A DNA stretch of 64,000 nt from an uncultured Burkholderiales bacterium (lineage in GTDB: Bacteria > Actinomycetota > Acidimicrobiia > IMCC26256 > JACPCJ01). The notes under the pieces were generated by a model, which worked only from the letters and a program-made list of their open reading frames with translations, did not search any database and had not been told where the DNA came from. Both the position numbers and the translations under genes were made by a program. The DNA lies in NCBI GenBank assembly GCA_964615175.1, contig CAZTOV010000003.1, positions 3,708 to 67,707 on the forward strand, read 5' to 3'. Shown here in pieces: positions 17,355 to 36,163 of the stretch. Numbering within the stretch: position 1 is the stretch's first letter; each line of letters starts with the position of its first letter.

Positions 17355-17987
17355 ATGACCCTCCCCAAAGCTGAAGCCTCCTGGCCCGCTGCCGAGATCC
17401 CACGACATCCGACGGCTGAGGCGCTGGTGGAGGCGACCGAGCGGCTCTTGATCGAAGACGGCTACGCGGAGCTCTCGACGCGTCGTATCGTTGAAGCCGC
17501 AGGCCAGACCCACGGGTCGATCCGGTACCACTTCGGGAGCCTCGAAGCACTCATCGTCGCGGTGGTGGAGCGCAGCACGATCGGGATCACCGAGCGGCAG
17601 CGCGCGATGTATCAGTCGGACCTGCCCTTCCGGGCCAAATGGGAGCAGGCGATGGAGTGGTTCGAAGAGGACCTGGCCGCGGGGTACCCGAAGCTGCTCG
17701 CCGAGCTGTTCGCCGCCGCCTGGAACGTGCCCAGGTGCCGCGCCGGACTCCGCCGGACCATGGAGATCTGGGCCGAGGTGCTCGAGGAGGCGGTGGCCGG
17801 GGCAGCCGAGGAGTATGGCGTCGACGCCGACGATGACCTCGTTGCGGGCGTCGCCGGCCTCATCGGCGCGTCGCAGCAAGGTCTTTTGTTCCAGCGGCTG
17901 GCTGGGATCGACGTCGAGCACGAGGCGACCGTGGCGGTGGTCGGGCGGGCCATCGACCTGTTGGAGGAGAGAGGGGCGCAACGATGA
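17355..17987 (+). CDS. TetR family transcriptional regulator
   Basis: 210 aa. N-terminal HTH region LLIEDGYAELSTRRIVEAAGQTHGSIRYHFGS. Its stop overlaps the next gene's start (ATGA at 17984). Confidence 0.85.
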   Translation: MTLPKAEASWPAAEIPRHPTAEALVEATERLLIEDGYAELSTRRIVEAAGQTHGSIRYHFGSLEALIVAVVERSTIGITERQRAMYQSDLPFRAKWEQAMEWFEEDLAAGYPKLLAELFAAAWNVPRCRAGLRRTMEIWAEVLEEAVAGAAEEYGVDADDDLVAGVAGLIGASQQGLLFQRLAGIDVEHEATVAVVGRAIDLLEERGAQR

Positions 17988-20119: not shown

Positions 20120-20295
20120 CACCGCTCTGAGGGCGTGCCGGAAACCGCCTCCTGTCGAGAACCTTCTCAGGTTTGCGCCACGCGTTTGCCCCACCCGTTC
20201 TGATATTCGACGGCAGAATCGGGTAGGGAGCGGACCGTCGGCCGCTTCTAGGTCTTCCTGTCCGGGGGATGTCCTTGCAGGTCCGCCACTTTGTC

Positions 20296-21729
20296 GGCTC
20301 TCCGCGATGAACGCTGGGGCGCGATGGGTGGGTTCGCCGTTCCATAGGGGTCCACCACCCGCGCCGAAGGCCTCCGCATTGTTGCGACTGCCGAGTCAGC
20401 AACAACGAGGGAGGCCTCCGGTGATGATCGAACGTAGTGCGGGTGCGACCGCGCTCTTGGGACTCGACGGCTTCGTGGCCGGCGCCCAGGTCGAAGAGGA
20501 CGGCGAGGTGTGGATCCTTGTCGAGACCACCGACGACGTGGCGGGCTGCCCGTTGTGTGGGACGCGGGCGGTCGGCAACGGCCGCCGCACAGTCAAGGTC
20601 CGCGACCTGCCCGCGGGCGACCGTCCGGTGGTGTTGGTGTGGCGGAAGCGCACCTGGGTGTGCCCCGCTCCCGAGTGCCCGGTCAAGTGCTTCTCGGAGG
20701 AGACCGACGCCGTCGCCCCGCGGGCGTGCCTCACGGAGCGGGCCCGGGCGGAGATCTGCCGGCGGGTGGGCAACGACGGCCACTCGGTCGCCCAGACAGC
20801 CCGGGACTTCGGGGTGTCGTGGGCCACCGCGATGGCGGCGGTGATCGACTACGGCAAGCCCCGCGTCGACCATCTCACCGCCCTGGGGAAGCCCGAGGCG
20901 CTCGGCCTCGACGAGACGTTGTTCCTCACGGCGACCGCGACGCGTCCCACGCTCATGGTCACCGGGTTCGTGGACCTCGACCGGCACCGGCTCCTCGACG
21001 TCGTGCCTGGCCACAGCGCCCACGCGGTCACCGGCTGGCTCGAGACCAAGCCGCCGGTGTGGAAGGCCGGCATCCGAGTCGTGGCACTCGACCCGTTCCG
21101 CGGCTACGCCACCGGCATCCGCAGAGGTCTGCCGCGTGCCCGCCAGGTCGTCGACCACTTCCACGCCATCCGCCTCGCCAACCGGACCCTCGACGAGGCC
21201 CGCCGACGCGTCCAGAACGAGACCCTCGGGCACCGCGGCCGCAAGGGCGACCCCCTCTACCGGATCCGCCGGCTCCTCCTCGTCGCCCACGAACGGCTCA
21301 GCGACACCGGCTGGGAACGCATCGAGAACGGGCTACGCCAAGGCGACCCCTACGACGAAGTCGGATCCGCCTACCTCGCCAAGGAGCTGCTGCGCGAGGT
21401 CTACGCCACCACCTCACCCCAGGTGGCGAGGGCCCGCCTCCGCACCTTCGACGCCCACTGCCACGACAGCAGCGTCCCCGAACTCGCCCGCCTCGCCCGC
21501 ACCATCCGATCCTGGAAGGCCGAGATCCTCGCCTGGCACGACACCGGACTCACCAACGGGCCCACCGAAGCCACCAACCTGCTCATCAAGAAGATCAAGC
21601 GGGTCGGCCACGCGTTCCGGAACTTCGAGAACTATCGGCTCCGACTCTTGCTCCACTGCGGCATCCAATGGAAACCTCGCCGGGTCGCCTCAATGCGAGG
21701 CCGTAACCCAGCGTTGGTCGCGTAGAGCC
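20296..21729 (+). mobile_element. ISL3-family insertion sequence with 8-bp target-site duplication
   Basis: IRL GGCTCTCCGCGATGAACGCTGGGG (20296-20319) versus the reverse complement of the right end, GGCTCTACGCGACCAACGCTGGGT, matches at 20/24. Flanking direct repeat ACTTTGTC at 20288-20295 and 21730-21737. Confidence 0.85.
20424..21725 (+). CDS. ISL3 family transposase
   Basis: 433 aa from ATG 20424 (RBS GAGGGAGG). N-terminal Zn-finger-like CPLCG..VCPAPECP. The C-terminus (TNGPTEATNLLIKKIKRVGHAFRNFENYRLRLL) is typical of ISL3. Confidence 0.9.
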   Translation: MIERSAGATALLGLDGFVAGAQVEEDGEVWILVETTDDVAGCPLCGTRAVGNGRRTVKVRDLPAGDRPVVLVWRKRTWVCPAPECPVKCFSEETDAVAPRACLTERARAEICRRVGNDGHSVAQTARDFGVSWATAMAAVIDYGKPRVDHLTALGKPEALGLDETLFLTATATRPTLMVTGFVDLDRHRLLDVVPGHSAHAVTGWLETKPPVWKAGIRVVALDPFRGYATGIRRGLPRARQVVDHFHAIRLANRTLDEARRRVQNETLGHRGRKGDPLYRIRRLLLVAHERLSDTGWERIENGLRQGDPYDEVGSAYLAKELLREVYATTSPQVARARLRTFDAHCHDSSVPELARLARTIRSWKAEILAWHDTGLTNGPTEATNLLIKKIKRVGHAFRNFENYRLRLLLHCGIQWKPRRVASMRGRNPALVA

Positions 21730-21743
21730 ACTTTGTCGGGGCG

Positions 21744-22781
21744 GTGATGGACCCTTTGGTTGCAGACCAATGCGACCGAAAGGAGTCCATCACCGTGACC
21801 CCCGACCAGATCATCTTCCATCGTCGCGTCCGCGCGATCGAACATGCTGAGGAATCCGGGAACGTCTCGGAGACCTGCCGGGTCTTCGGGATCTCCCGAA
21901 CCACGTTCTACAAGTGGCAGAACCTGGCCGAGGACTATGGCCTCGATGCTCTGATGCCCAAGGGCCGTCGTCGCCCCCAGATGCCGAATGCCACCCCGAC
22001 TCACGTCGTCGAGGAGATCCTCACCTTGGCGGTGATGCGACCCACACTGGGGTGCCGGCGCTACGCCGACGAGTTGGAGCAGCGTGGCTATGCGGTGTCG
22101 AAGACCACGGTGCAGAAGATCCTGGTGGACCACGGCCTCGGCCGGCGTTCCCAGCGGGTGGCGAGAGCGGCCGCCCTCGCTGCGCTCACCGCCGGGCTGG
22201 TCACCGAGGCGGCGGTCGACGACGAACTGTTCGGGTTCTGCCACTTCGCTTCGGACCCGGGCCAGCTCGTGGCGCTCGATTCCTTCTACATCGGGAACCT
22301 CAAGGGCGTGGGGAAGGTGTACCAGCTCACCGCGGTGGACACCGCCACGCGCTGGGCGGTGATGCTGTTGCTGATCGGCCCCGTCACCGCCGAGGACACC
22401 ATCCGCTTCGTGGACCACGCCGTGCGCCGCTTCCGCCGCCACGGCATCCGAGTGCGCAGCGTCCTCACCGACAACGGACCCGAATACAAGGCCCGAGCTT
22501 TCCAACACGCCCTGGCCGCCAAGGGCCTCCAGCACCACCGCACCCCTCCTCGGAGCCCCAACCACAACGCCGTGTGCGAACGCTTCCAGGGCACCGCCCT
22601 CCAGGAATGCTGGCGCCCCGCCTTCCACCGCCGACGCTTCACCAGCGTCCGCCAGCTCCAAGCCGAAGCCGACTCGTGGCTGGTCGACTACAACACCCGC
22701 CGACGCAACCACAGCGACTTCATGCGAGGCCGCACCCCACTCGAGGTTCTCGACAGCCACAAGAAAAAGCAGGCAGCATGA
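21744..22781 (+). CDS. IS481-family (rve/DDE) transposase
   Basis: 345 aa. HTH region CRVFGISRTTFYKWQ. DDE core (LVALDSFY..., TDNGPEYK..., RSPNHNAVCERF). Confidence 0.9.
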   Translation: MMDPLVADQCDRKESITVTPDQIIFHRRVRAIEHAEESGNVSETCRVFGISRTTFYKWQNLAEDYGLDALMPKGRRRPQMPNATPTHVVEEILTLAVMRPTLGCRRYADELEQRGYAVSKTTVQKILVDHGLGRRSQRVARAAALAALTAGLVTEAAVDDELFGFCHFASDPGQLVALDSFYIGNLKGVGKVYQLTAVDTATRWAVMLLLIGPVTAEDTIRFVDHAVRRFRRHGIRVRSVLTDNGPEYKARAFQHALAAKGLQHHRTPPRSPNHNAVCERFQGTALQECWRPAFHRRRFTSVRQLQAEADSWLVDYNTRRRNHSDFMRGRTPLEVLDSHKKKQAA

Positions 22782-22842
22782 CCATCAGCCAAAGGGTCCA
22801 CCTGTCAGGTCGACTCCCGGGCGGGAAGGCCTAGAAGAGTGA

Positions 22843-24459
22843 TCAGGAGACAGCGACGTCTCGGTGTCGATTCGTGGAGCACTTGTGTTGCGCGCCGCTC
22901 TCACCGAACCATCGCCTCGCTCGCTGGCTCGGACCGCCGGGCTTCTTGTCGATGATGTGCACCGTCCACGGTTTCCCGTCACGATCGGCGAGCGCAAGAC
23001 GCACAACCCCGAGGAGGTGGGTGTCGACGGAGGCGAGAGCATGACCCATGACCGCGACGGTGTTGGTGACCGAGAAGACCCCACGGGCCGCATCGGCGAT
23101 TTCGGCGAGCGGTGCCGCGGCGTAATCCTTGAGTTCCTGCGGGGGTATTAGTACTTGGCGGAACGATGAGGGTCGCCCGCGACGCGGGGGGCAGTCACAG
23201 AATCGCCGAATGGCGCCAACCGTCGCCCACGGTTCGAGCCAAGATTGCCAGCGATGGATGCGCCCCGGACATTCGGCCAGGTCGATCGACCCGTGAACCT
23301 TGAGGAGTGGTAACCAACGCGGAGCGCGCACCAGACGTTCCTCCGCTATTCGATCCGCGCCAGCCATATCAAGCGCGTCGGGAAACGACCCAGGCATCAT
23401 GTTTGGAAAGTGGCGTCCCCCCGAGTAGCGCCGGACTCTTGTTCCAAACTCCAGGACCCGAAACGGCTGGCGAATGTCGCTGGCGGCGAGTGTCCACGCG
23501 GTCTCGACGAACAAGTCGTAGTTCGTGGTTACCACGGCATCGCCTCTCGACAAACGCTTGACGAGGTCGTAGTACACATCGAAGAAGCCAGCCAACGATC
23601 GAAGTTGAGCCCCGTTAGCCGAGCAGCGTCGAGCTGCCCACAGTAGGTCGAGCCAACGGTCGCCCCTGCGCTCTTCGTTGTGGTGACCTTGTGGGATCAG
23701 AAGAAAGTCGCCCGGGTTGTCGTGAAGGAGCCTTCCTCGCAGCGACAGCCAGAAGTCGTCTTCAGTAATCCGGCGCCCGGTGTCACCGCTGAGCTTCTTC
23801 CAAAGGAGACCGGCAGCGTCGAACATTGCCGAGGGTGGTTGGCCGTCTTTGGTCGGGATTTCGTACACGCGGGTACACACTCTGGCTATTGTGTCGACCG
23901 CTTGTCGCTCATGGCGGTTACGCGCGTCGCGGCTGTCCGGTGTGTTCACCGCGTGCGACAACAGAACTTGCCCGAGTACTTGCTTCTCGGGCGTGAGTTC
24001 TCTTAGCAGCTGGTCCTTCGCCCATTCTTCGGGGGATTCGAGGAACGCCCGGACCGATTCGATGGAAGATTGAGCGTACGGCGCGTTCCAGAGGGGGAGA
24101 CGCACATCTTCGAGTGCCTCGACGATGCGGCGGTGGCAGCTCGCGATCACCCCGTTGTGAACTGTGAGGATCGCGCGTTGGAGGCTTCGCAAGTCTCGAG
24201 CTGATCGTCCCCCTGCTGATCGCTGACCTATCAGAGCCTCGTCGCAGGCTGCCCATGCTTCTTGTATTGGGGGGTGCTTCAAGCGTTCGTCGTCCGGATC
24301 GTAGGGAATTCGCTGGTCCTCCATGAACTCACGGACGATCTCCGTGGAGCGAACGGGCGCGTCGCGAACGACATCTGGGGTAAGAAAGTCCCATAGCGTC
24401 GGCGCCCCGGCCGGGGCGGACGCGCCGGCGCCGAGCAGCCAAACCACAGCCATCGCCAC
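22843..24459 (-). CDS. SIR2-like (SIR2_2-type) protein, candidate NADase defence effector
   Basis: 538 aa, GTG start (alternative ATG 24453). Motifs LLGAGAS (aa 8-14), VVTTNYD (aa 309-315), LLKVHGS (aa 385-391). About 295 aa lie between the first two motifs. Lower-GC context. The stop is 6 nt from the IS481 right end. Confidence 0.7.
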   Translation of the reverse strand: MAMAVVWLLGAGASAPAGAPTLWDFLTPDVVRDAPVRSTEIVREFMEDQRIPYDPDDERLKHPPIQEAWAACDEALIGQRSAGGRSARDLRSLQRAILTVHNGVIASCHRRIVEALEDVRLPLWNAPYAQSSIESVRAFLESPEEWAKDQLLRELTPEKQVLGQVLLSHAVNTPDSRDARNRHERQAVDTIARVCTRVYEIPTKDGQPPSAMFDAAGLLWKKLSGDTGRRITEDDFWLSLRGRLLHDNPGDFLLIPQGHHNEERRGDRWLDLLWAARRCSANGAQLRSLAGFFDVYYDLVKRLSRGDAVVTTNYDLFVETAWTLAASDIRQPFRVLEFGTRVRRYSGGRHFPNMMPGSFPDALDMAGADRIAEERLVRAPRWLPLLKVHGSIDLAECPGRIHRWQSWLEPWATVGAIRRFCDCPPRRGRPSSFRQVLIPPQELKDYAAAPLAEIADAARGVFSVTNTVAVMGHALASVDTHLLGVVRLALADRDGKPWTVHIIDKKPGGPSQRARRWFGESGAQHKCSTNRHRDVAVS

Positions 24460-24502
24460 AGGTCAACAGCTTCGGCAGGCCAACGCAACCGACCCACCGC
24501 CA

Positions 24503-24841
24503 TCACCTCAGCTGCTCCTGAGGCCGAACCCAGTGAGCAACAAGCTCGATTGTTCGCGTGTAGCGGCGACGCGCCCAGCGTCCGGGACGGCAAGCCTGCG
24601 ACGGTGCATTGGATCGGGTTGCCCACCGGCGGCACCGAACCGGCGTATGTCGTCGGTCCGAGACGCCTCCACGCGCTCGCCCGGTGAGGTGAATCAGTTG
24701 CACCTTCTGGATGATGGGCTCGAAAAGCCGGCGTACGATTTGTTCGCAGAGCCGGTCTTCACTCTCCCGGGTCAGATCGCCGACCCTCAGATTCTCGGAC
24801 AGAATGTCGTGAAGGGTCCACGACTCGGAGTTCGCTTCCAT
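24503..24841 (-). CDS. Candidate small ORF upstream of the SIR2-like gene (uncertain)
   Basis: ATG 24841. The first ~55 codons (MEANSESWTLHDILSENLRVGDLTRESEDRLCEQIVRRLFEPIIQKVQL..) have clearly higher third-position GC by my count than the overlapping plus frame. The Arg-rich distal half looks non-genuine, so there may be a frameshift. Confidence 0.3.
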   Translation of the reverse strand: MEANSESWTLHDILSENLRVGDLTRESEDRLCEQIVRRLFEPIIQKVQLIHLTGRARGGVSDRRHTPVRCRRWATRSNAPSQACRPGRWARRRYTRTIELVAHWVRPQEQLR

Positions 24842-25160
24842 GGATCTCGAAGCTGTCGATGACAGGATCCTCGCCGAACTTGGAGCGTCGCTTCTCGGGG
24901 AGGCGAAGGAGCTTTCACCCTCTGACGTTCGCCGACTGGCAACCATCGGCCGACATTGGCTTCGTGAGAATCTCGACGCGCTGGTCGAGATCATCTGCAG
25001 CGACCCACGCGTGGTCGGGTGGAGGGCGGCGAGTTCGTCCGACCCGGTCGAACTTGCTGCTCTGGTTGCAGACGCCTTCGCGGGTATGCGGGGTTGGCCG
25101 CCCGCCGCGTCGATCGCACGACTCGTGAGCCGTATCGGTATCGACCGATTCTGTTCGTGA
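24840..25160 (+). CDS. Hypothetical small protein, translationally coupled to the HExxH protein
   Basis: 106 aa. ATG 24840 lies inside CCATGG, shared with the minus-strand ATG at 24841. The stop overlaps the next start (GTGA at 25157-25160). Confidence 0.5.
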   Translation: MDLEAVDDRILAELGASLLGEAKELSPSDVRRLATIGRHWLRENLDALVEIICSDPRVVGWRAASSSDPVELAALVADAFAGMRGWPPAASIARLVSRIGIDRFCS

Positions 25161-26458
25161 CCATCGCGGAGTCGATCGCTCAGGCCATCCGATGGCGCCT
25201 CGATGTCGATGAGATTGAGGAAAGCCGCCGAAATGTCGATGCGCAGGTCGAACGTGGGTTCGTTTTCGAGCCCGAAGAGATGCCCCTGGTCGAGGCTGCG
25301 CGCGCCAAGATCGACGCCGATGACTCTTGGGCCGATGCGTTCATCGGCGCGATCACCGCATACCTGAGTGACTCCCGCCGAGTCGGCGACAGCGCAAAGG
25401 CCACCTCAGCGTTACGTGATCGGGCGGCGATCACCTTCGTTGACCATCTCGGCGTCAGCGTGACCGTCAGTCGATGCAGTGACGAGTCCGTCCTCATCGT
25501 GGCCGATCGAGGTGTTCTCTGGATGCTCAGCGCACTCGCGGCGACGCTCGCTTCGGTCTGGCCCATTGGGGGCCACAGGTCGGTGACGACGTCCGTCCCC
25601 CTCGAGCTTCGCGTCGAGGCAGCAGCCCGGCGTCTCCTTCGCAACCCACAGCCACTTGTGCGCCACCGACACGCGCCGAGTCGCTACGCGCTGCAAGCCG
25701 ATCTCGTCTTCCACGCGATGACGTTCGCGATCGCGCACGAGTTCGGACACGTCGCGTTGGGGCACACCGTTAACGGCCGTTCGTCGTCCTTCGCAGGCAC
25801 GGAAGTAGCCGTACCGGCTGGCGTCACGGTCGAGGAGTTCGCCGCTGACGCCGCTGCCCTTCGCGCATGTCTTCAGGAATCCGAGTCAGAGGCCGATGAG
25901 CTGTTGGTGCGTCTTGCCGGCGTTCGCTGTCTCTTCACAACGCTCAGCACACTGGAGCGTTACGCCTACGCCGTCCCCGCGACCAGCCATCCGCCAGCAG
26001 ACGAACGCTGGAGGCGCGTCGCAGGAGCACTCGTCCGCTCTGGTCAAAGGGAAGTCACTGACCGGCTCGACGGCCTCTGGCACGCGACGAGAGCCGGCAG
26101 TACACCGGCGCGACTACCGAGCCCGAGCGATCTCGTCTCCCGCCTTCGATCCGATGCGAGTCTGTGCCAGGAGATCCTCCCCGAGAACGCGGTTCGGTCG
26201 CTCGCGGCAGCGGATCGTTGGTTCACGACACCGTTGGAGATGCACCGCCGATATTTGGCTGAGGCACATGTCGACCACGGCGTAGAGCTCGAGTCGGCGG
26301 GGCGCGCCATCCACGATGCCGTTAGTGCCGCCGTGTCGTCAGGTGGGCTCAGTTGGAGAACGCTGTTCGATGCGATCGAGAACCGCAACCAACGACTGCT
26401 TCCATCGAAGACCGCGATCTCTGTTGCTCGAACTGCATACGCAGACTGTCGCCCCTGA
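25157..26458 (+). CDS. HExxH zinc-metallopeptidase-like protein (ImmA/IrrE-like motif)
   Basis: 433 aa from GTG 25157. Single motif FAIAHEFGHVALGH. No other recognisable domain by eye. Confidence 0.55.
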   Translation: MTIAESIAQAIRWRLDVDEIEESRRNVDAQVERGFVFEPEEMPLVEAARAKIDADDSWADAFIGAITAYLSDSRRVGDSAKATSALRDRAAITFVDHLGVSVTVSRCSDESVLIVADRGVLWMLSALAATLASVWPIGGHRSVTTSVPLELRVEAAARRLLRNPQPLVRHRHAPSRYALQADLVFHAMTFAIAHEFGHVALGHTVNGRSSSFAGTEVAVPAGVTVEEFAADAAALRACLQESESEADELLVRLAGVRCLFTTLSTLERYAYAVPATSHPPADERWRRVAGALVRSGQREVTDRLDGLWHATRAGSTPARLPSPSDLVSRLRSDASLCQEILPENAVRSLAAADRWFTTPLEMHRRYLAEAHVDHGVELESAGRAIHDAVSAAVSSGGLSWRTLFDAIENRNQRLLPSKTAISVARTAYADCRP

Positions 26459-26549
26459 GAGCGTGCGATTTCCTGCCGATGCCGCTGAGGAACTTGCTGA
26501 GATCGCCATCGAATGGGCCGCAGAGCGAGGTGCGGTCTTCGAGTGACCG

Positions 26550-27104
26550 TCAGCTCGTGGCTACTCCGTCTTCATCGATGTTGTCGAACAGTGAGGGGGT
26601 CCCCAAGCGCCATCGCCACGCGCGCCGTCCTCGACTGGTCCTGAGAAGCCGCAGCCGGGTCTGTCCGAGTCGATACTCGGCGGCGTCCACGTCGACGTCC
26701 TTGGTGCCATCCCACGCGGCGCTGATCGCCAGGCTCGCGTTGAGCACGTCGCCCGCCGCGTCGACGAGATCGGCCCTGGCGTGTTGGATCAGCTCGCCAT
26801 GTGCCCGGACGACTTCGTCGATCTTCGCGAGCCCGCGCTCCATGATCGCGATCGCTGCTTCCCGCGGAACCGCTGGTCGTCGGTCCACGAACAGTTGGCG
26901 CCAGAGGGGGCCATCGGCGAACGCGTGGCCGAACCGCACGATGCCCTGGACGGCCATCGCTGTCGTGGCGAGGTCCGTCACCGCTTGCTCTTCGGATCGT
27001 CTCCGTTCCGCCCACCGTCCGAGGCCGTGGTTGACCAAGTAACCGACGATGGCGATTAGGGCTGCGACGACGATTGCGTTTGCTTGGCTCATGGCGTTCA
27101 GCAT
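26550..27104 (-). CDS. Hypothetical membrane-anchored protein
   Basis: 184 aa. One N-terminal TM (AIVVAALIAIVGYLV), helical remainder. Lies downstream of the Xis-like ORF on the same strand. Confidence 0.5.
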   Translation of the reverse strand: MLNAMSQANAIVVAALIAIVGYLVNHGLGRWAERRRSEEQAVTDLATTAMAVQGIVRFGHAFADGPLWRQLFVDRRPAVPREAAIAIMERGLAKIDEVVRAHGELIQHARADLVDAAGDVLNASLAISAAWDGTKDVDVDAAEYRLGQTRLRLLRTSRGRRAWRWRLGTPSLFDNIDEDGVATS

Positions 27105-27234
27105 GCCTCAATCAGGCGACGATCCAGGGGAGGAATCGCCGACGATCCAGTTGATTGGGGAGGTCGTAGCGCCACGCCTTCTGAGGCAACTACGGGGAGG
27201 GGTGCCCTTCCGGCTGGCGTCGCGCTTCGTCTAA

Positions 27235-27441
27235 CTACGCCACAACCTCGTCCTGATCGAAGCGAAACAGATGACCCCACTTGATTGTGAGGATCGGGAT
27301 GCGACGCTCGAAGACGAGTCGCCACACGTGCCGGACGGTTACGCCCGCGAACCGCGCCCAGAGCTGTCGTTCCGTGGCACTCATAGAAGACAGCGCTTCG
27401 TTGGCCCGGGAGCCTGAAGAGCGACGACGAGGCGGCGTCAC
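27235..27441 (-). CDS. Excisionase / HTH_17-type DNA-binding protein (orphan Xis)
   Basis: 68 aa. GVTVRHVWRLVFERRIPILTIKWGHLFRFDQDEV matches the MerR-like excisionase pattern (HTH, then 'hydrophobic-K/R-hydrophobic-G-x-x-hydrophobic-R-hydrophobic'). Confidence 0.65.
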   Translation of the reverse strand: MTPPRRRSSGSRANEALSSMSATERQLWARFAGVTVRHVWRLVFERRIPILTIKWGHLFRFDQDEVVA

Positions 27442-27514
27442 GGTGGCAGCGGCGGGGATCCGGCGATAGCCAGCGGAGGATCACCCCAGCGGACGTGGCA
27501 CGCTGGATGTTCTC

Positions 27515-28351
27515 ATGAAGGCCCGTGCAACCGCCGCTCTTGCTCAGCTTCGCGATGGCGAGTTCATCGAGGCGGTAGCGCGCGGTCTGTCACTGACCGT
27601 TGAGTGGATCGAGAACCTCGAGAGGTGGGCAAGTCACCTCGAGGAGAACCACGCCGGCGGTGCTGATGTCCTTCGGGTCGTCGCCGACGAGGAAGCCGCC
27701 AAGTACCTCATTCTTGTGGACGCTGTTCGGTGCCCACGACGCTCCCAGAAGGTGCGGGTCAGGCAGCTGAAGCGGTGCCACAGGCATATCGAGAAGGGGA
27801 TCTACGCCGAGGCGTGCGACTACTCGCCGTCTACATACAAGGACCTCCTCGGTTATATCGAGCACATGCGGCTCAGCCATTATCTCGATGGCCCCAACGA
27901 CGTTGATTGGATCTTTCGCAACGTGGTCGAAGCCCGGCGTGAGGAGCGGCTCTATGTCGATTACGTCGAGGGCGACGACGGTCAGGAGTGGTGGACGCCT
28001 TCCCGCTTCGACAGGCTGTCGGTGTGGTCATCGGACTCGTCTGCAGTTCGCGTGGTCCGGTCCCTCACCCGAGCGGGTCTTGGCGTTCCCGCCGGCCTGA
28101 GGATCGTGGCCGACATCTGGCGCGAGTTCGAGGTGAGGGACGAGACGACGTACGCGGAGCTGCGAAACACGATCAACGAGACGGTTCTCCGCCTGAAATC
28201 GGCCGGGGTCTTCCAGGCGGATTTCGCCGGCCATGATCACAGCGTGATCGTCGACTCCTGGCAGTTCCCCCTGTATCTCGCCGACCTCACCGTGATCGAG
28301 GTCGACGTGGAGGAACTGCGCGAGCGGCAGCGCAATTGGACGCCCGACTGA
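27515..28351 (+). CDS. Hypothetical protein, weak HEPN/AbiV-like features
   Basis: 278 aa. N-terminal helical segment ending VVADEEAAKYLILVDAV resembles the AbiV EExxK helix. R/H-rich LKRCHRHIEK. No firm assignment. Confidence 0.45.
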   Translation: MKARATAALAQLRDGEFIEAVARGLSLTVEWIENLERWASHLEENHAGGADVLRVVADEEAAKYLILVDAVRCPRRSQKVRVRQLKRCHRHIEKGIYAEACDYSPSTYKDLLGYIEHMRLSHYLDGPNDVDWIFRNVVEARREERLYVDYVEGDDGQEWWTPSRFDRLSVWSSDSSAVRVVRSLTRAGLGVPAGLRIVADIWREFEVRDETTYAELRNTINETVLRLKSAGVFQADFAGHDHSVIVDSWQFPLYLADLTVIEVDVEELRERQRNWTPD

Positions 28352-28858
28352 GCTGTCCAAGGACGCCTTCCCACGTGAGCCACTCCGACGACCGCCGGAC
28401 AGCGCCGTCAAATGCGCTACGCAATGACCTTGGAGTGGCATGCCCGCGAGGGCCGAGAGGCTCTTTTCACCGGCGATGCGGCAGTCCCTTGTGGCTTGAC
28501 CAGCCGCTTCGCGGACTTGACACAGCTACCAATCGGGGGCGAGCAGCTCGTCATGTGACCACCGAGCGGGGCGACGCGAGCCACGTCGAGCCCTACGCGA
28601 GTCTTCTCCCGACCGCAAGGGTGGTGGCCTTTGAGGTGCTTACCCGCAATGGCCCCACTTCGTCGAGTTGGCGCCATGGTCGCACGCGCGCGTCCAATCG
28701 CCGGCTGTTGCGGGCGCATTCTGGAGCGTCCCCAAGTAGGCACTTCGGAGACGGGGGCTCTGCGGTGATCTCGTGGACGTCCAAGCCGGGGGGATCTGGC
28801 CTGCATCGAGCATCCGGTCCGCGGATCAATACCAAACGGGTCTTCTAACGTTGGTGGC

Positions 28859-31813
28859 GTGACTGATCCCTTTACAGGAGCGGCACTCGCAGAGTTCGTG
28901 GGTGGCGTAGCTGCGCACGCACTACTTGGTGCCCTCGGCACAGCGCACCGCCAGCTGAAGCGGGTCGGGAAAAGCGAGCGCTCGCAGATTCGCGACCTCA
29001 GACGGCTGGTGGACCACCCACGATTTGGAGACCACATCGCAGGCGTTGTTGACGCTGGGCTTCGAGCCATCGAATCCGACGCACCTGGTCACTTGACCGG
29101 ATCATTGCGTAGGGAGTTGCTGCCGATGCTTGAGCGTCTGATGGAGTGGCGTATCGCTGGGGTTGATAGGTCTGTGCTTTCCGTACTTCGGCTTGAATGG
29201 CAGCGCACCGTGCGCCTGTACGCGAGTGGGCCGGACAGCGAAGTCTTGGATGGGGCTTTCAACATTCTGGTACAGGTGGCCGATGCGAGCGCCGAATACC
29301 TGGCGGGTGCTGGGGCTCGTTTCGACTTGATTGACGAGCACCAAGTTCATCTCCGTGCGGTCGAAGGACAACTTGAGGCTTTGCGCCGGTCGATAGATGG
29401 GCCATCAAGCAGCGAAGCACTCACAGCTGGCGAAATCCAGCAGGTACGGGGCCGCCTGCGACGCCAGGCCGAGCTTCACCACCGATATGTGACTCCCCCT
29501 GACTTCGAGCGGCAGCGTCGGATTCCGCTCGCAGACATATATGTGAAGCCGCGGGCTGAGCCCGTGACCGCAGATCTCGCTCGTATGGACCTCCGTGTCG
29601 ACGTGGACGAACTTCTCGCGCAGGAGCCTCGACTCGTAGTCCTCGGTGCACCCGGTGCAGGGAAATCAACGCTGGCGGGCTACTTCTGCCACCAACTGTC
29701 CACCGCGACTGAGACAGACGAGACCCATCCGCAGACAGCGGCCGTGGTTGTGCTGAGAAATGCCGTGGCCACACAACAACCGGGATCTTTTGCTGTTCGG
29801 TCGGCGATCGTGGACACCTTTGAGGGCGTATATCAGGTGAACGTCAAGTCTTCCATTCTTGAACACCTGTTGATTTCGGGCGGCCTGACAGTGATCTTTG
29901 ACGGGTTGGACGAGTTGCTCGATGCGACCCGTCGACGTGAGGTCGCCGCAGCGATAGAGGCGTTTGGGCACGCCTATCCGAGGGTCAGAATTCTCGTTAC
30001 CTCGAGGCGCGTTGGTTACGAGCAGGCACCGCTGGATGACGGCATGTTTCCGGTATACAGGCTGACGGAGTTCTCTGAGGCAGCCGTAGAGGATTACGTC
30101 GAACGATGGTTCCAGTACCACGCAGCTGAATACGGCGGCACAACTCCGGCGGAACTTCAACGGAACTTCATGCACGAAAGCCGCAGCGTGGCTGACCTCC
30201 GCAGTAACGCGCTCTTGTTGTCGTTGATGTGCATCCTGTATCGGGGACGTCAGTACATCCCACGCAACCGCCCCGATCTGTACGAGGAGTGTGCGCGCCT
30301 GCTGTTTTCGGATTGGGACCGGCATCGACGTATTCAAGGTGAAACCACGTTTGATCTTCAGACGCAGTTCGTATTGCAGCATCTCGCCACATGGATCATG
30401 AGTGACCGGGATCGGGAACGCGGATGTACCGAAGCTGATTTGGTGGATGAGACATGCCGCTACTTCGCCGAGTGGGTCTATGACGACGTCGATGTTGCTC
30501 GTGACGCGGCTCGGAGCCTCTTCACCTACTGCCGAGGTCGCTCCTGGATCTTGTCAGAGGTCGGCACGACTGCCGATGGCCAAGGTATTTGGTCTTTCAC
30601 GCACCGCACGTTCCTCGAGTATTTCGCCGGCCTCGGGCTTGCGCGATCAAACCCATCGATCGACGGATTTGCCGGTCACGTCGCCGAGCTTTTAGGGGAT
30701 GCGCGGTTCGAGGTCATCGCTCAGATCGCTGTGTACCGCAAAGCACGAGAGGCCGCGGGCGCGATCGATCAGATACTCCTTCACCTTCTTGAGCGCGCTC
30801 CATCAGGGGCAAGCCGTGATCGGTTGATCGGCTTTGTCTGTCGTATGCTCCAGCTTGTTGTGCCGAAGCCGTCGACGACAACGGCGATCGTTGAGGCTGC
30901 AGTTGCCCGAGATCTCGAGCAGACCGCCCGGCGCGAGTCCCATCCCGGGTTTCATACCGTGGGGGTAGTGGCCGGTCGCCCTGAGGTCCTAGCGGTGTCG
31001 AGGCGCTCCCTGGTTGGAACTCTGACCAGGACGGCAACAGCACGTTCTTCCGCGGCACGACTTGTATCCAAGTTGATCTCATCGATCACGGCCGAATCAA
31101 TTCATCATTTTCAACCGTCGTTGTTTGATCAGGATCCTCGACCGGAGTACGCAGAGGGATTCCAAGTTTGGCAGAACGTGTCGAGGGAGGTCTTGTCGGA
31201 GATCCACCCTGTGTTGTACGACATCGCGAGCCAGGATGCGGAGACGGCGCGCGACCTGCTTCGGGAGAGACAACTCAGCGCCGAGGCCTATCTCGAACTT
31301 CACGATTGGGGTGGACTCTTCGCTGCTGAGCGCGAGAGCGGCACTGCCTACATCGTGGAGGCCCTGAACTCTCTGCCGAACACACCTGGCCTCGTGGGAA
31401 GTGCAACGGACGTGATCGAGAGCCTGGGCCAGGCTGCAATGTCGGGTCCGCCTCCCTACGTTGCGGTTGACGTTGACGACGTACCGGACGTCACATACTT
31501 GCGCCCAGGGGCCGTGACAGATGTCGACATGGGCAGCCCGTTGTTTGTCGGAGTGTCCATCGCCCTGTGCCTGCTCGATGAACTCACAGACGGCGAAGTT
31601 GCGGATCAAATTGAGCCGATGAGTCTTGCCACTCTTGATGGCATGAAGGATGTTCTGCGCGGGAGGTTAGAGCATGAGTCCGAAATAGCAGATCGTGGCC
31701 TACGTGCACTCGATCTGCCCTCGACGGTCAAGTCCGCAATGCGCGACTGGGCCGCTGGCACCAGCCTGTTCGCGAAACGGAGTAGTAAGGGTCCGCCGCA
31801 GACTGGCGATTGA
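28859..31813 (+). CDS. NACHT-type STAND NTPase (bacterial NLR-like)
   Basis: 984 aa, GTG start. Walker A VVLGAPGAGKST (aa 260-271), Walker B LTVIFDGLDEL (aa 343-353), then ILVTSRRVGY. The N-terminal ~230 aa are helical with a Gly/Ala-rich first helix. The C-terminal ~550 aa show no obvious repeats. Lowest-GC part of the window. Confidence 0.8.
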   Translation: MTDPFTGAALAEFVGGVAAHALLGALGTAHRQLKRVGKSERSQIRDLRRLVDHPRFGDHIAGVVDAGLRAIESDAPGHLTGSLRRELLPMLERLMEWRIAGVDRSVLSVLRLEWQRTVRLYASGPDSEVLDGAFNILVQVADASAEYLAGAGARFDLIDEHQVHLRAVEGQLEALRRSIDGPSSSEALTAGEIQQVRGRLRRQAELHHRYVTPPDFERQRRIPLADIYVKPRAEPVTADLARMDLRVDVDELLAQEPRLVVLGAPGAGKSTLAGYFCHQLSTATETDETHPQTAAVVVLRNAVATQQPGSFAVRSAIVDTFEGVYQVNVKSSILEHLLISGGLTVIFDGLDELLDATRRREVAAAIEAFGHAYPRVRILVTSRRVGYEQAPLDDGMFPVYRLTEFSEAAVEDYVERWFQYHAAEYGGTTPAELQRNFMHESRSVADLRSNALLLSLMCILYRGRQYIPRNRPDLYEECARLLFSDWDRHRRIQGETTFDLQTQFVLQHLATWIMSDRDRERGCTEADLVDETCRYFAEWVYDDVDVARDAARSLFTYCRGRSWILSEVGTTADGQGIWSFTHRTFLEYFAGLGLARSNPSIDGFAGHVAELLGDARFEVIAQIAVYRKAREAAGAIDQILLHLLERAPSGASRDRLIGFVCRMLQLVVPKPSTTTAIVEAAVARDLEQTARRESHPGFHTVGVVAGRPEVLAVSRRSLVGTLTRTATARSSAARLVSKLISSITAESIHHFQPSLFDQDPRPEYAEGFQVWQNVSREVLSEIHPVLYDIASQDAETARDLLRERQLSAEAYLELHDWGGLFAAERESGTAYIVEALNSLPNTPGLVGSATDVIESLGQAAMSGPPPYVAVDVDDVPDVTYLRPGAVTDVDMGSPLFVGVSIALCLLDELTDGEVADQIEPMSLATLDGMKDVLRGRLEHESEIADRGLRALDLPSTVKSAMRDWAAGTSLFAKRSSKGPPQTGD

Positions 31814-31912
31814 GATTCGCGCGGGCAGCTGTCAACCGCCGTACCGCCTCACGCTGGCGGCAGGGACCAATGGTGGCGCTGTCCCCGAGAGGCCACTTGG
31901 TGGGCAGTCAGG

Positions 31913-32884
31913 GTGACACGCGATTCTCCTCGCCAGCAGCGTGCCTTCTCGTGCGACAATCATGGCGCCATGAGCGAGGACCGTTGCCCCTACTGCCTGC
32001 AGCCCTTCTCGGATGGTGGCGGCAGGACGGACGAGCACATCTTCGGCGAGGCGTTTGGAAGTCGAGCGCATGTGGATGCCTGCCGCGAGTGCAGCGGAAC
32101 GCTCGGCCAGACGGTGGAGGGCGACATCCATGCGCGCGATTCCGTGATCGATCTCATCAAGTGGGCGGCAGGAGAGAAGTCGATGCGCGGTGAAGCTGCC
32201 CTCGGGGATGAGGGAAGGCGTGTTGAGGTCGTGGTCGACGCCGACGGGCGCCCCGTGCTGGAACATCCGGACGTGCGGTACGAGAGACAGGGGGATCGTT
32301 TGGAGGGACGGCTGACCTTCCCCGAGGGAACACCACCTGAGAAGATGGTCGCTGGCATCGAGAAACGTCTGCGGCGCGAGGGGCTCCCGGAAGAAGTTGC
32401 GAAGGAAGAGGCCAAGAAAGCAGTTGCCGACGCGGTGATCGTCAGCCAGTCAGTAGAAGTGGAGTCGACCCTCGAAGCCGATCTTGGCTCGCTTCGACGG
32501 CATAGCGCCAAGGTCGCGCTCGCGGCGTCTGTTGCAGTAGGCGTTCCGATCGACAGCGAGTTCAGCGAAGCGTTACGTAAGAAACTGCACTCATCCGACG
32601 GAATGCCTGAACAGGCAGCCGACTCACAGATCGTCGAACGGATCCAGCAGAACGTGTCCACCGCTGGTCTCACACCACCCGTCGCGAGCGATGGTCGTCC
32701 CTCAGCACAGGTGACGTTCGCGGCCGTCGAGGAAGGGACACTGGTCGACGTACACATTCTTGGACAACCGCATCCGTCCGGTCCGGCTCTGATCCCTGTG
32801 GCGATGCCCGAACTCGGCATGGACGGAATCAGGGTGGTCCGAGAGGCGAGCCAGCCTCTCGAGGTGCTGAGCGTCTCCGGCTAA
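31913..32884 (+). CDS. HNH-like (HNH_5-type CxxC..DEH..CxxC) domain protein
   Basis: 323 aa from GTG 31913; a more likely start is ATG 31970 (MSEDRCPYC..). CPYCLQPFSDGGGRTDEHIFGEAFG..ACRECSGTLG fits a beta-beta-alpha-Me/HNH layout. The remaining ~260 aa are unassigned. Lies 99 nt downstream of the NACHT gene on the same strand. Confidence 0.55.
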   Translation: MTRDSPRQQRAFSCDNHGAMSEDRCPYCLQPFSDGGGRTDEHIFGEAFGSRAHVDACRECSGTLGQTVEGDIHARDSVIDLIKWAAGEKSMRGEAALGDEGRRVEVVVDADGRPVLEHPDVRYERQGDRLEGRLTFPEGTPPEKMVAGIEKRLRREGLPEEVAKEEAKKAVADAVIVSQSVEVESTLEADLGSLRRHSAKVALAASVAVGVPIDSEFSEALRKKLHSSDGMPEQAADSQIVERIQQNVSTAGLTPPVASDGRPSAQVTFAAVEEGTLVDVHILGQPHPSGPALIPVAMPELGMDGIRVVREASQPLEVLSVSG

Positions 32885-32940
32885 TCAACAGTCGACTGTC
32901 CTCTACCGCCGGCTCTGCGCCCCGCATGGTTGGCCCTTCG

Positions 32941-32971
32941 CTCATGTCGGGATGGGCCATCCCGACATGAG
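32941..32971. terminator. 31-nt perfect palindrome downstream of the HNH-like gene
   Basis: CTCATGTCGGGATGG-g-CCATCCCGACATGAG (arms 32941-32955 / 32957-32971), 57 nt after the stop at 32884. Confidence 0.5.
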
Positions 32972-33142
32972 CGGCTGACCTGACTGGACGGCCACACGAG
33001 CGGGCCACACGAACGGCGCGAATGACGGGGGAGCGAAGGGACATCGGGAGACGAAAGGGGAATGGGATCTCGGGTCGTCGCGGCCGCAACACGCAGGTCA
33101 GAGCCTCGGTACAGTCGCCCAGGCACGGAGGACCTCCTCGCG

Positions 33143-33203
33143 GATGGCAGAGTGGCCCCTTCCTCTCAAGGTGGAGGCACGGGTTCGAATCCCGTTGGGG
33201 GTA
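33143..33203 (+). other. tRNA-derived fragment (T-arm plus D-loop-like piece), non-functional
   Basis: GGATGGCAGAGTGGCC.. followed by ACGGG-TTCGAAT-CCCGT and TGGGGGT. There is no matching 5' acceptor strand (ACCCCCA) and no foldable anticodon arm. Confidence 0.55.
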
Positions 33204-33277
33204 CTCAGACCGAAAGTTCTGGTCGCTCCCCTTAATTCGTGGGGCGGAACGTCTTCCAAGCAGTGTCCGTTATGTCG

Positions 33278-33316
33278 GAGTGTTCCCCACGAGTGTTCCC
33301 CACGAGTTTCGTTCTG
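33278..33316. repeat. 13-nt tandem repeat (x2) merging into a 19-nt direct repeat
   Basis: GAGTGTTCCCCAC GAGTGTTCCCCAC GAGT.. (33278-33307). CCCCACGAGTTTCGTTCTG at 33298-33316 is identical to 16040-16058. Confidence 0.7.
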
Positions 33317-33529
33317 CGTGGTCATCGACCACGGGTGTGTCGACTCCGGCGCGGACGTTGAATCGCGAACCACCTGGTCGGAAGGATGTCGGCGACGCAC
33401 AGGCCACGGCGATGGCCGCCAGATCGACGTGGCTCCCACACCGCAAAGGTGGGGTCATGAGTCTGGTGGGGGTGGACACGGTCCTTCCGGTGGGCGGATG
33501 CGAGATTTCACGCCGGCGGATGGGCCTTG

Positions 33530-34342
33530 TCATCCCGCGTGGTCCGACGAGGTGTCGATGATGGCGGTGACGTAGCGCAGGGGTAGCACCAGGGTGCCGT
33601 CGTCGGCTTCGTTCCAGCGCTCGAACAGCTCGACCAGGTCGTGCGTGAACGACTGGAGCCTCTCTTCGTCGAGTGACTCGGCCATGCGCACGAAGGGCGG
33701 ATAGGTGCTGATGAGCATGTCCGCATAGGCCTGCGCGCTCGGGAGCCGCCAGCGGAAGGTGCGGTCGTGCAGCGCCAGTTCGACATCGTCGCCGAACAAA
33801 GACCGCAAACCGTCCTCGGTGCCCCATGTCATGGGCGACGGGGCGCCCGGTGGCGGGGGGTTGTACTCGGCGATCACGGCAGGGAACTCGGCCCAGCAGT
33901 CGACCGGTGTCCAGCTCGCCAGGGCGATGCGCCCTCCCGGTCGGGTGATCCGGAGGAGCTCGCTCGCCGTCTGGTGGTGGTCGGGTGCGAACTGCACGCC
34001 GACACAGGACACCACCACGTCAAAGGCGGCATCCGGGAGGTCGAGTGCGGCGGCATCGCCGGTACGGAACTCGATGTCGAGGCCTTCGGACGCGGCGCGT
34101 TGCTGTGCTGACTCCAGCAGGTCGGCGACGATGTCGATTCCGCTCACCCGGGCGCCGCGCCGGGCCGCCGCCAGGGCGGCGTTGCCGTTGCCACACGCGA
34201 TGTCGGCCACGTCGTGACCGCCCCGCAGGTCCGCCGTCTCGCAGAGGTCCTCGGCCATCCACACCAGCCGCGACCCGACGACGGTGTAGTCCCCGGCGCT
34301 CCAGACCTCTCGGCTCCGCTCGCCGGCAGTCGTTGTCGTCAT
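33530..34342 (-). CDS. Class I SAM-dependent methyltransferase
   Basis: ATG 34342 preceded by GAGAGGAGAA. SAM motif VADIACGNGNAAL, then VSGIDI. Confidence 0.85.
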   Translation of the reverse strand: MTTTTAGERSREVWSAGDYTVVGSRLVWMAEDLCETADLRGGHDVADIACGNGNAALAAARRGARVSGIDIVADLLESAQQRAASEGLDIEFRTGDAAALDLPDAAFDVVVSCVGVQFAPDHHQTASELLRITRPGGRIALASWTPVDCWAEFPAVIAEYNPPPPGAPSPMTWGTEDGLRSLFGDDVELALHDRTFRWRLPSAQAYADMLISTYPPFVRMAESLDEERLQSFTHDLVELFERWNEADDGTLVLPLRYVTAIIDTSSDHAG

Positions 34343-34451
34343 CGGAATTCTCCTCTCATTCGGTTCATTCGGTGCCGTCTCCATTCAGGCCTGTCCCGAC
34401 GCGCGACCGACAGGTCAACAGCCAGTCGGCGGGTTGCAACCGCTGGTCGCA

Positions 34452-34835
34452 TCACGTCTGTTCGATCGGGTGCCCTGCCTGCTCCCAGGCCTCGAAGCCG
34501 CCGTCGAGGTTCACGATCTTCTCGTAGCCGAGCTGCTGGAGAGCGAGGCAGGCCAACGCGGAACGCGACCCCTTGGCGCAGTACACGAGGACGGATCGGC
34601 TCGGGTCGAGCGCCTCGAGGTGGTACGGGGTCTCGGGGTCGGCGTGGAACTCCAGCATTCCTCGGGGCGCGTGCACCGACCCGGGGATCCGCCCGTGTTC
34701 CGCCAGTTCGCCGGGCTCGCGCACGTCGACGACGACGACCTCGTTGTCGGCGACCTCCCTGGCTGCTCGGTCGGCGTCGATGCCGTCGATGCGTTCCCGG
34801 GCTTCGGCCACCAGCGCTGATGCGCTCTTCGTCAT
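34452..34835 (-). CDS. Rhodanese-like domain protein
   Basis: 127 aa from ATG 34835 (RBS GAAGGAGA). Active-site loop YCAKGSRS. Confidence 0.8.
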   Translation of the reverse strand: MTKSASALVAEARERIDGIDADRAAREVADNEVVVVDVREPGELAEHGRIPGSVHAPRGMLEFHADPETPYHLEALDPSRSVLVYCAKGSRSALACLALQQLGYEKIVNLDGGFEAWEQAGHPIEQT

Positions 34836-34911
34836 GGTGATCTCCTTCTCTCGTTGGTTGATGGTTGCGTGCATGACATCCGTATGCGGGCCAGACATCG
34901 GGTGCCCGCGC

Positions 34912-35988: not shown

Positions 35989-36163
35989 GATCTTCCTCCC
36001 GCGGTTGGCGCTCTCAGATGGCGGTGGTTCGTCCGCCTGAGACCATCCTCCGATGCACCGGTTGGGTGGCGGTGGTGCGGCGGTGGGGTGGAGCTGCCTC
36101 AGGCACGAGCGGGCGGATGCGCCCCCAGACGCCGTCGTTGCGGGTCCGGTACCGTTCGGAAGC

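Follow-up and report, generated by a model that had tools for sequence, protein, structure and literature searches.

A compositionally foreign block of defence-type genes, bordered by an IS481 element and a tRNA-Glu fragment, in an uncultured Acidimicrobiia bacterium

How did a block of about 10.5 kb, packed with genes for conflict-type domains, come to lie in the genome of an uncultured actinobacterium, and could these genes serve in phage defence? We addressed these questions for positions 22838-33320 of a 64,000-nucleotide (nt) stretch of contig CAZTOV010000003.1 (positions 3,708 to 67,707; GenBank assembly GCA_964615175.1, deposited as an uncultured Burkholderiales bacterium and placed in the Acidimicrobiia by GTDB). 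The whole stretch is referred to as the window, and all coordinates are positions in it. An earlier sequence-only reading, made from the letters and the translated open reading frames (ORFs), had described the block as a more recently acquired defence island nested in an older island. We suggest, with a probability of roughly 0.6, that the block represents what is left of the integrase-distal (attR-side) end of an island that once resided in a tRNA-Glu(CTC) gene, and that it carries several independent candidates for abortive-infection-type functions. In this scenario, a horizontally acquired island would have integrated at the tRNA gene. Its integrase end would then have been lost and replaced by an IS481 border in a deletion or rearrangement mediated by an insertion sequence (IS), while the right border would have retained an attachment-type tRNA fragment that extends from the anticodon loop to the 3' end. 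We infer this integration history, and the defence activities of the genes, from the composition of the block, its two borders, the domains and motifs that it encodes and the modularity of its SIR2, NACHT and HNH-like genes.

Composition and borders of the block

The block has a G+C content of 62.55%, while the rest of the window has 68.49%. Over all windows of the same length (10,483 nt), G+C averages 67.3% with a standard deviation of 2.0 and falls to its minimum of 62.57% in the window that begins at 22901. Tetranucleotide usage deviates in the same place. In 4-kb windows, the correlation of G+C-normalised tetranucleotide usage with the rest is 0.76-0.89 inside the block and 0.86-0.955 elsewhere, and the corresponding raw distances are 0.021-0.031 versus 0.0095-0.020, with the extreme of the entire window over the NACHT gene. 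Similarly, G+C at third codon positions is 0.64-0.79 in the genes of the block versus 0.76-0.94 in flanking genes. Composition is, in other words, not uniform when computed over full windows, and the block is both the stretch of lowest G+C and the one with the most deviant tetranucleotide usage in the 64 kb. The four spot counts from which the sequence-only reading had proposed a lower-G+C block (37, 34, 29 and 44 G+C per 60 nt) are exact. These data support that the block is compositionally foreign and fit its horizontal acquisition. Because G+C differs among the genes of the block, from 59.6% in the NACHT gene to 66.1%, a mosaic origin is suggested rather than a single donor.

At its left border, the block starts 1 nt after an IS481-family element, the right inverted repeat of which ends at 22837, just as had been proposed. 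The terminal inverted repeats of this element are 38 nt long (20245-20282 and 22800-22837) and 76% complementary. An ISL3 element with inverted repeats at 20296-20318 and 21707-21729 is nested within it and is flanked by an 8-bp target duplication, ACTTTGTC, at 20288-20295 and 21730-21737. At the flanks of the IS481 element, no target duplication was found (CGGCCG on the left vs AGTGAT on the right), which suggests that one of these flanks is probably not the original insertion target and that the border may be the trace of an IS-mediated deletion or rearrangement.

At the right border lies a sequence derived from a tRNA-Glu(CTC) gene. ARAGORN reports a whole tRNA-Glu(CTC) at 33132-33204, but both the acceptor and the anticodon stem of this cloverleaf contain T.T mismatches and its D arm is poor. 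With the Rfam tRNA model, it scores 20.4 bits (threshold 29), whereas the true tRNA-Thr gene of the window scores 70.2. Positions 33162-33208 are 93.6% identical over 47 nt to the tRNA-Glu(CTC) on the Arthrobacter plasmid NZ_CP104273, and the 5' part is unrelated to it; the matching part begins approximately at the anticodon loop and extends a few nucleotides past the 3' end. The mismatches, the sub-threshold score and the unrelated 5' half argue against an intact, working tRNA-Glu gene at this position. Since the score is low and the match to a real tRNA-Glu is confined to the 3' part, tRNA-derived fragment is the better label. Strand and position of the fragment agree with what would mark the right end of an island located to the left of it, and its shape is that of a putative attachment-site remnant of a tRNA-targeting element. 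Two independent contigs from Logan assemblies break inside the fragment, at 33177 and 33191, and these breaks fit the presence of identical k-mers at another site in the sample, such as a real tRNA-Glu gene.

The fragment is followed by a 17-nt exact repeat, the copies of which begin at 33278 and 33291, i.e. with an offset of 13 nt; the second copy overlaps an exact 19-mer that is discussed below. Thus, the tRNA-derived fragment and the short repeats at which the block had been said to end are both real. Folding of the region 33205-33340 is not significant (z = -1.6). The hairpin that precedes the fragment (Table 1) is not followed by a run of T and is, therefore, not a classical terminator.

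Genes of the block

Nine genes are called in the block, based on gene calls on an identical Logan contig (Table 1). The sequence-only reading had listed a SIR2-like gene, an "HExxH pair", a membrane protein, an Xis-like gene, a HEPN/AbiV-like candidate, a NACHT gene and an HNH-like gene, and had taken these for several unrelated defence modules. The SIR2-like, AbiV-like, NACHT and membrane protein calls were substantiated, and the remaining three held in part, as described for each gene. The defence-type domains also behave independently: NACHT homologues stand alone, the similarity of the HNH-like gene to its homologue is limited to the gene, and a relative of the SIR2-like protein is encoded beside a CBASS system. 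The contexts in which homologues of the SIR2, NACHT and HNH-like genes are encoded elsewhere are unrelated, which supports that these three genes are independent modules. The nearest homologues of the block genes are from unrelated phyla and plasmids. Matches to PADLOC profiles are partial, with E values of 1e-6 to 1e-7 over one third of the profile, and NCBIfam scores are far below their cut-offs. Single-sequence searches of the PDB gave nothing useful for any of five block proteins. The labels Lit-like, AbiV-like and NACHT family are justified at this level of similarity, while Lit, AbiV and bNACHT would overstate it.

Table 1. Coordinates of the genes and other features of the block and its borders
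Feature	Position	Strand	Remarks
IS481-family element	20245-22837	+	Left border; transposase ORF 21744-22781; Pfam rve/HTH_28
ISL3 element	20296-21729		Inserted 13 nt inside the IS481 left inverted repeat; Pfam DDE_Tnp_ISL3
SIR2-like protein, stand-alone, 536 amino acids (aa)	22843-24453	-	Pfam SIR2_2, PADLOC SIR2; candidate NAD+-consuming effector
106-aa ORF	24840-25160	+	Stop codon overlaps start of peptidase gene (GTGA); called on Logan contig
Lit-like (Peptidase_U49) zinc metallopeptidase, 433 aa	25157-26458	+	HEFGH at residues 194-198
184-aa protein with one N-terminal hydrophobic helix	26550-27104	-	Kyte-Doolittle maximum 2.11, residues 10-28
49-aa ORF, weak excisionase/HTH_17-like candidate	27235-27384	-	Called on Logan contig
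AbiV-like HEPN protein, 278 aa	27515-28351	+	Rx5H motif (RQLKRCH) at residues 83-89
48-aa ORF, coding status uncertain	28412-28558	+	Logan contig 5655-5801; third-position G+C 0.75
NACHT (STAND) NTPase, 984 aa	28859-31813	+	Helical N-terminus (~1-250), NACHT, ~400-aa C-terminal region
HNH_5-like near-orphan, 304 aa	31970-32884	+	Pfam HNH_5 on residues 6-52
Hairpin	32939-32973		Perfect 17-bp stem, 1-nt loop; 55 nt past stop codon of HNH-like gene
tRNA-Glu(CTC)-derived sequence	33132-33208	+	Right border; read as attachment-site remnant

The SIR2-like protein matches Pfam SIR2_2 with 22.8 bits (threshold 24.5) and PADLOC SIR2 with an E value of 6e-7. A word-indexed search of 5.8 billion proteins returned no homologue, while a search among 1.84 billion representatives returned 23 remote relatives besides the query at E<=1e-3; 19 of 21 members of the resulting family match SIR2_2. 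The family alignment has invariant GAGxS, TxNYD and KxHGS columns, and the query conforms to them; it retains G8/A9/G10, N311/Y312/D313 and K385/H387/G388 together with the Cys cluster, the latter in incomplete form. A profile of the family matches the Sir2 subunit of Sir2-HerA in the PDB (8yhx, 3e-14; 8w9l, 1e-13; 8j4u, 8e-11), with 8J4U being the Sir2 of the Nezha system (PMC13434337), and also DSR2, KomC and ThsA. Thus, the catalytic motifs are intact and the family profile matches anti-phage Sir2 NADases. The closest relative (P0122; locus L168, JGI 3300029813 contig, 1-13695) is encoded in a dense defence neighbourhood with a McrA_N/CN-hydrolase protein, MazE, a CBASS operon comprising a CD-NTase and Cap15, and a phage integrase; three other contexts of relatives have no constant partner. 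Compared with the anti-phage SIR2 NADases (Sir2-HerA/Nezha, DSR2, ThsA and KomC), the protein shares the three motifs and has a relative in a defence island, but it has no HerA, SLOG, pAgo or other partner, its Cys cluster is incomplete, and it contains a helical insert of ~170 residues. This insert is located between the glycine loop and the TxNYD motif and is present in the query and about five relatives. No HerA partner is encoded in the window, and the stop codon of the SIR2-like gene is 5 nt from the end of the IS481 element. A Sir2-HerA system that lost HerA to the insertion sequence is unlikely because the relatives of the SIR2-like protein also have no constant partner. By analogy to the family, the stand-alone SIR2 protein would deplete NAD+ once triggered.

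The Lit-like peptidase contains the sole HExxH motif of the block. Thus, of the proposed HExxH pair, the peptidase stood and a second HExxH protein did not; the partner is instead the translationally overlapping 106-aa ORF, for which the one match is a sub-threshold match to TY-Chap3 (E value 0.0067). The peptidase matches the PADLOC profile Lit (E value 6e-7), peptidase_U41 (3e-7) and the NCBIfam family "phage exclusion protein Lit" (3.6e-7). PF10463 (Peptidase_U49) is on record as a precomputed match for the identical protein, and our own Pfam scan lists M48 alone, with an E value of 0.005. In BLASTP, it is 27% identical to Lit of Escherichia coli K-12 over 104 aa (E value 5e-6), a region that spans HExxH and HPxAxER. 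Lit of the E. coli e14 prophage is a late-exclusion protease that cleaves EF-Tu. The two proteins are alike in that the HExxH core and HPxAxER align and in that both are encoded in an integrated element, a presumed one in the case of the block; in e14, the lit gene adjoins int and xis. By contrast, the block protein is longer (433 aa vs 297 aa), its N- and C-terminal regions are unrelated to those of e14 Lit and its gene is coupled to the upstream 106-aa ORF. At the level of the family, the Lit-like zinc peptidase would be expected to cleave a translation factor of the host upon the appearance of a phage product, and its coupled 106-aa partner might restrain or assist it.

The assignment of the next large gene to AbiV-like HEPN proteins is supported by a sub-threshold domain match, an Rx5H motif and a plasmid homologue that bears the name AbiV. 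Pfam HEPN_AbiV matches residues 42-164 with 21.4 bits (threshold 27.1), and NCBIfam AbiV_defense matches with 17.8 bits (E value 0.0032; cut-off 27). Homologues were found on plasmids (n=26), and 23 of the 26 cover at least 80% of the query; the best of them, from Prescottella equi pVAPN1572, is 35% identical over 97% and annotated as "AbiV family abortive infection protein". In lactococci, AbiV depends on an RNA antitoxin, abiV2, that is encoded upstream. Long gaps flank the AbiV-like gene, 410 nt at 27105-27514 and 508 nt at 28352-28858, and an RNA partner could lie in these. An Rfam search of the 14-36 kb region, made with general models of which none is specific for abiV2, found no RNA family that could be such a partner. 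The rRNA-cleaving lactococcal AbiV has its motif at 91-RNHKSKH-97 (bioRxiv 10.1101/2024.05.05.592566). The block protein resembles it in its HEPN_AbiV-type core and in the similar position of Rx5H (83-89 vs 91-97), but is longer (278 aa vs 201 aa), remains under the Pfam and NCBIfam thresholds and has an opposite-strand ORF in the 410-nt gap upstream of its gene. If the family function is conserved, this HEPN RNase would attack rRNA.

The NACHT protein is a predicted STAND nucleoside triphosphatase (NTPase). It exceeds the Pfam threshold for NACHT (35.0 bits, threshold 26.7) and matches NPHP3_N with 34.2 bits. It has 697 homologues, mostly of ~1000 aa and from many phyla, and in the family alignment Walker A (G263, P265, G266, G268, K269, T271) and Walker B (D348-E352) are invariant. 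The two homologues that were checked stand alone in unrelated neighbourhoods. The N-terminal 254 residues are predicted to form an all-helical bundle (predicted local distance difference test score, pLDDT, 74.9), for which no fold match was found in the PDB (best E value 1.4), and the C-terminal 570 aa have no Pfam match. The best PADLOC match, mad8 (E value 7.9e-4), is not meaningful, and the NCBIfam matches to EruA (residues 246-282; E value 6.6e-6) and DS8 (0.0016) are at the level of the P-loop and far under the cut-offs; neither database places the protein in an experimentally validated antiphage clade. Antiphage bacterial NACHT proteins have a three-part layout and include a class termed "NACHT N-terminal helical" (bioRxiv 10.1101/2022.07.19.500537). 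Like the bNACHT proteins described there by Kibby et al., the block protein is encoded by a single gene and has a central NACHT domain with intact Walker A/B motifs; it may also share the three-part layout, and the modelled helical N-terminus appears to resemble that class. Unlike these proteins, it has no recognizable enzymatic effector domain, and no repeat-type C-terminal sensor domain was detected. We suggest that the C-terminal region would sense a phage cue, that the protein would oligomerise on ATP, and that it would act via its non-enzymatic helical N-terminus.

The HNH-like gene is a near-orphan with one homologue (P0146, 83%) among 5.8 billion proteins. The DNA similarity between the window and the contig that encodes this homologue (L169) is 85% and confined to 31939-32912. 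Judged from this pattern, the HNH-like gene is best regarded as an independent gene cassette, and the protein is possibly an HNH-type nuclease. A two-gene system made up of the NACHT and HNH-like genes was considered and rejected because NACHT homologues stand alone and the HNH-like homologue shares the gene only.

Three small genes complete the block. The 184-aa protein has no family in Pfam, PADLOC, PHROGs or NCBIfam, has a third-position G+C of 0.78, which supports that it is coding, and is predicted to be the membrane protein that had been proposed, with one helix. The 49-aa ORF has no Pfam match. The 48-aa ORF, which lies between the AbiV-like and NACHT genes in the gap of 508 nt, has no match in Pfam, PHROGs or NCBIfam. 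In the preferred explanation, these three would be accessory parts or remnants.

The larger variable region

The window begins with a conserved locus. TopA (8597-11356) is 72-75% identical to TopA in Acidimicrobiia metagenome-assembled genomes (MAGs), and the gene order DECH helicase, LCP, TopA, MFS, HolB, tRNA-Thr is kept in about 20 of these. To the right of the tRNA-Thr gene (14544-14617), no synteny was found in any of the ~20 TopA-anchored MAG loci, and the nearest MAG contig stops 1 kb beyond it. Three contigs of Logan assemblies are identical to parts of the window (14660-15826, 22758-33191 and 33177-43239), the second of which is approximately the block itself. Look-ups of the exact proteins returned only such same-population Logan pieces, which are broken at repeats and among which there is no empty site. 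The methyltransferase at the right flank of the block has no relative in genome contigs, and its best matches in metagenome contigs are at most 44% identical.

The 3' half of tRNA-Thr(CGT) (14575-14608) recurs 45.6 kb to the right on the same strand, at 60140-60173 (34 nt, 97%, with 28 nt exact); the 3' acceptor strand is not conserved in this copy, which has the appearance of a distal attachment site for a large island at the tRNA-Thr gene. In addition, the 55 nt just 3' of the tRNA-Thr gene (14635-14689; here D) are repeated at 45199-45253 (D') with 89% identity, and the 69 nt before this second copy (45131-45199; X) at 60061-60129 (X') with 78% identity, all of them non-coding. In the self-comparison of the window, the layout is thus tRNA-Thr, D, X, D', X', tRNA-Thr fragment, with D directly next to the tRNA-Thr gene, X next to D', and X' next to the fragment. 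This arrangement looks like two tandem units with similar ends at the tRNA-Thr gene, one at 14.6-45.2 kb and the other at 45.2-60.1 kb. Pfam scans of the main ORFs revealed no integrase in either unit. The outer region, comprising both units, has a host-like G+C of 66-69%, which fits an older acquisition. The proposal that the block is nested in an older island therefore stands in outline, as a larger variable region framed by the tRNA-Thr gene and its 3' fragment; that the block is the more recent arrival is supported by composition, which is the one basis for their relative age.

Three further features of the surrounding DNA are noted here. Two near-perfect palindromes of 49 nt that are ~87% alike (3690-3738 and 6065-6113) lie on either side of the DECH-box helicase gene (3731-6034). 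Two paralogous regulators of ~1200 aa with SARP/BTAD, adenylate-cyclase and AAA/STAND-type ATPase domains are encoded 2 kb apart (36053-39697 and 41545-45024) and have a common 31-nt segment with 93% identity (37828-37858 and 43203-43233). Directly to the right of the tRNA-Thr fragment are genes for an ice-binding-like protein (60996-62024; Pfam E value 6e-69) and a sortase (60292-61032).

Competing explanations and implications

In several respects, the block resembles defence islands on decayed tRNA-targeting integrative elements: its composition is foreign, one border carries a fragment of a tRNA 3' half, IS elements and an Xis-like remnant are present, and several unrelated defence-type genes, whose modules recur singly elsewhere, are closely packed. 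At the level of domains, SIR2, Lit-like, AbiV-like, NACHT and HNH-like genes lie within 10 kb beside IS481/ISL3. Unlike in such islands, one end alone is recognizable here, with the tRNA 3' repeat at the border being present and the integrase, the intact partner tRNA and the second repeat being absent, and no gene passes the curated thresholds of a catalogued system.

Several observations count against the reading of the block as the remnant of a tRNA-Glu island with defence genes. Neither an intact tRNA-Glu gene nor a second copy of its 3' end was found within the 64-kb window, and the integration event can, therefore, not be reconstructed. Among the called genes and the ORFs in the gaps of the block, there is no integrase, recombinase or recombinase fragment, which bears out what the sequence-only reading had stated. 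The genome and metagenome contig collections searched contain no close relative that could show an empty site. The proposed Xis-like gene exists as an ORF, but its assignment is weak, as the 49-aa product matches NCBIfam TIGR01764 with 15.8 bits (E value 0.014; cut-off 28.8). A 19-nt direct repeat (16040, 33298) brackets 17.3 kb including the block and is not explained by integration at a tRNA-Glu gene. With respect to defence, none of the genes scores above a curated cut-off for a validated system in comparisons made at the level of profiles, without the system rules of PADLOC or DefenseFinder, and searches of phages and viral contigs gave no homologues of the block proteins. The Lit-like peptidase scores 29.7 bits against an NCBIfam cut-off of 274, and is thus not a full-length equivalent of Lit. 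Similarly, the HNH-like gene is present as proposed, but its HNH assignment is weak: the HNH_5 match has 22.9 bits (threshold 27.5), the Asn of CxxCN is replaced by Ser (CRECS) while the sole homologue has CHECN, and the predicted structure is unusable (pLDDT 36).

The alternative that survives best, albeit as an improbable one, accepts the horizontal acquisition of the block but not its role in defence. The genes would then be a chance set of conflict and regulatory domains that function in toxin-antitoxin-like addiction, as signalling NTPases or in the housekeeping tasks of sirtuins or peptidases, or that are decaying, pseudogene-like cargo. All the defence assignments are remote and most scores are under the family thresholds, and NACHT, SIR2, HEPN, HNH and M48-like peptidases all have members without a defence function. 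Moreover, of the three readable contexts of NACHT and SIR2 homologues, two (L083 and L173) have no defence-type neighbours and the third (L085) shows a KAP NTPase and a transposase alone; two other SIR2 contexts are too short. By contrast, five conflict-type domains abreast within 10 kb of foreign DNA, with remnants of mobile elements adjoining, form the classic pattern of a defence island, the SIR2, peptidase, NACHT and AbiV-like proteins all retain their catalytic motifs, and the nearest relatives by structure and sequence are anti-phage rather than housekeeping proteins.

Less probable still is a single insertion that spans all 17.3 kb from one copy of the 19-mer to the other and includes the methyltransferase, TetR and hydrolase-glycosyltransferase genes as well as the block. 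The 19-mers would then serve as its attachment or target repeats, and the tRNA-Glu-like piece would belong to the cargo instead of marking a border. The 19-mer, CCCCACGAGTTTCGTTCTG, occurs exactly twice in the window, at 16040-16058 and, 17,258 nt away and in the same orientation, at 33298-33316, where 0.02 matches are expected by chance. Both copies are intergenic and lie 3' of two unrelated minus-strand methyltransferase genes, and the sequences that flank the two copies are unrelated to each other, as expected at an insertion boundary. A segmental duplication at these sites was rejected because the methyltransferases beside the 19-mers are not paralogues. The composition of the segment argues against a single unit: its left part (14618-20244) has 66.1% G+C, near that of the host and unlike the block, and the TetR and hydrolase-glycosyltransferase genes have a third-position G+C of 0.81-0.85, close to that of the host. 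The segment also has no recombinase, the exact 19-mer does not occur in the metagenome contig collection and no empty site was seen. Finally, a single repeat of 19 nt is just moderately unlikely in GC-rich DNA of this length (64 kb), and the window contains a few other chance-like repeats of 16-19 nt.

That the block is native, with a low G+C that stems from peculiarities of mutation or selection at this locus, for example in genes that are weakly expressed and evolve fast, is very improbable. A modest drop of 6 points in G+C and dips to 64.5-66% in other parts of the window would permit it, but G+C, tetranucleotide usage and third-position G+C all reach their extreme for the window in the block. 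In addition, its edges are sharp and fall at an IS end and at a tRNA fragment, the HNH-like gene has a counterpart with 85% DNA identity in another context, and the nearest homologues are from unrelated phyla and plasmids.

A defence-island remnant, as we prefer to read the block, is an ordinary category; its members here are very divergent, and the SIR2 and HNH-like families are very rare. On this reading, the borders provide a textbook case of IS activity that erodes an integrated island. Because such erosion removes the integrase, which is a signature for annotation pipelines, the block would be overlooked by recombinase-based searches. The phage defences of this uncultured Acidimicrobiia lineage are essentially unstudied, and the block offers five divergent, intact-looking conflict domains in 10 kb, the genes for which are cheap candidates for heterologous phage-challenge screens. 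Most interesting among them are the rare stand-alone SIR2 protein with its insert and the near-orphan HNH-like gene. We speculate, tentatively and as the less likely outcome, that the SIR2 protein with its ~170-residue insert founds an uncatalogued family of stand-alone NADases that combine sensor and effector, and that the HNH-like and NACHT genes may be further undescribed single-gene defences. If so, an uncultured actinobacterial lineage would hold, in this block, a small store of new defence genes.

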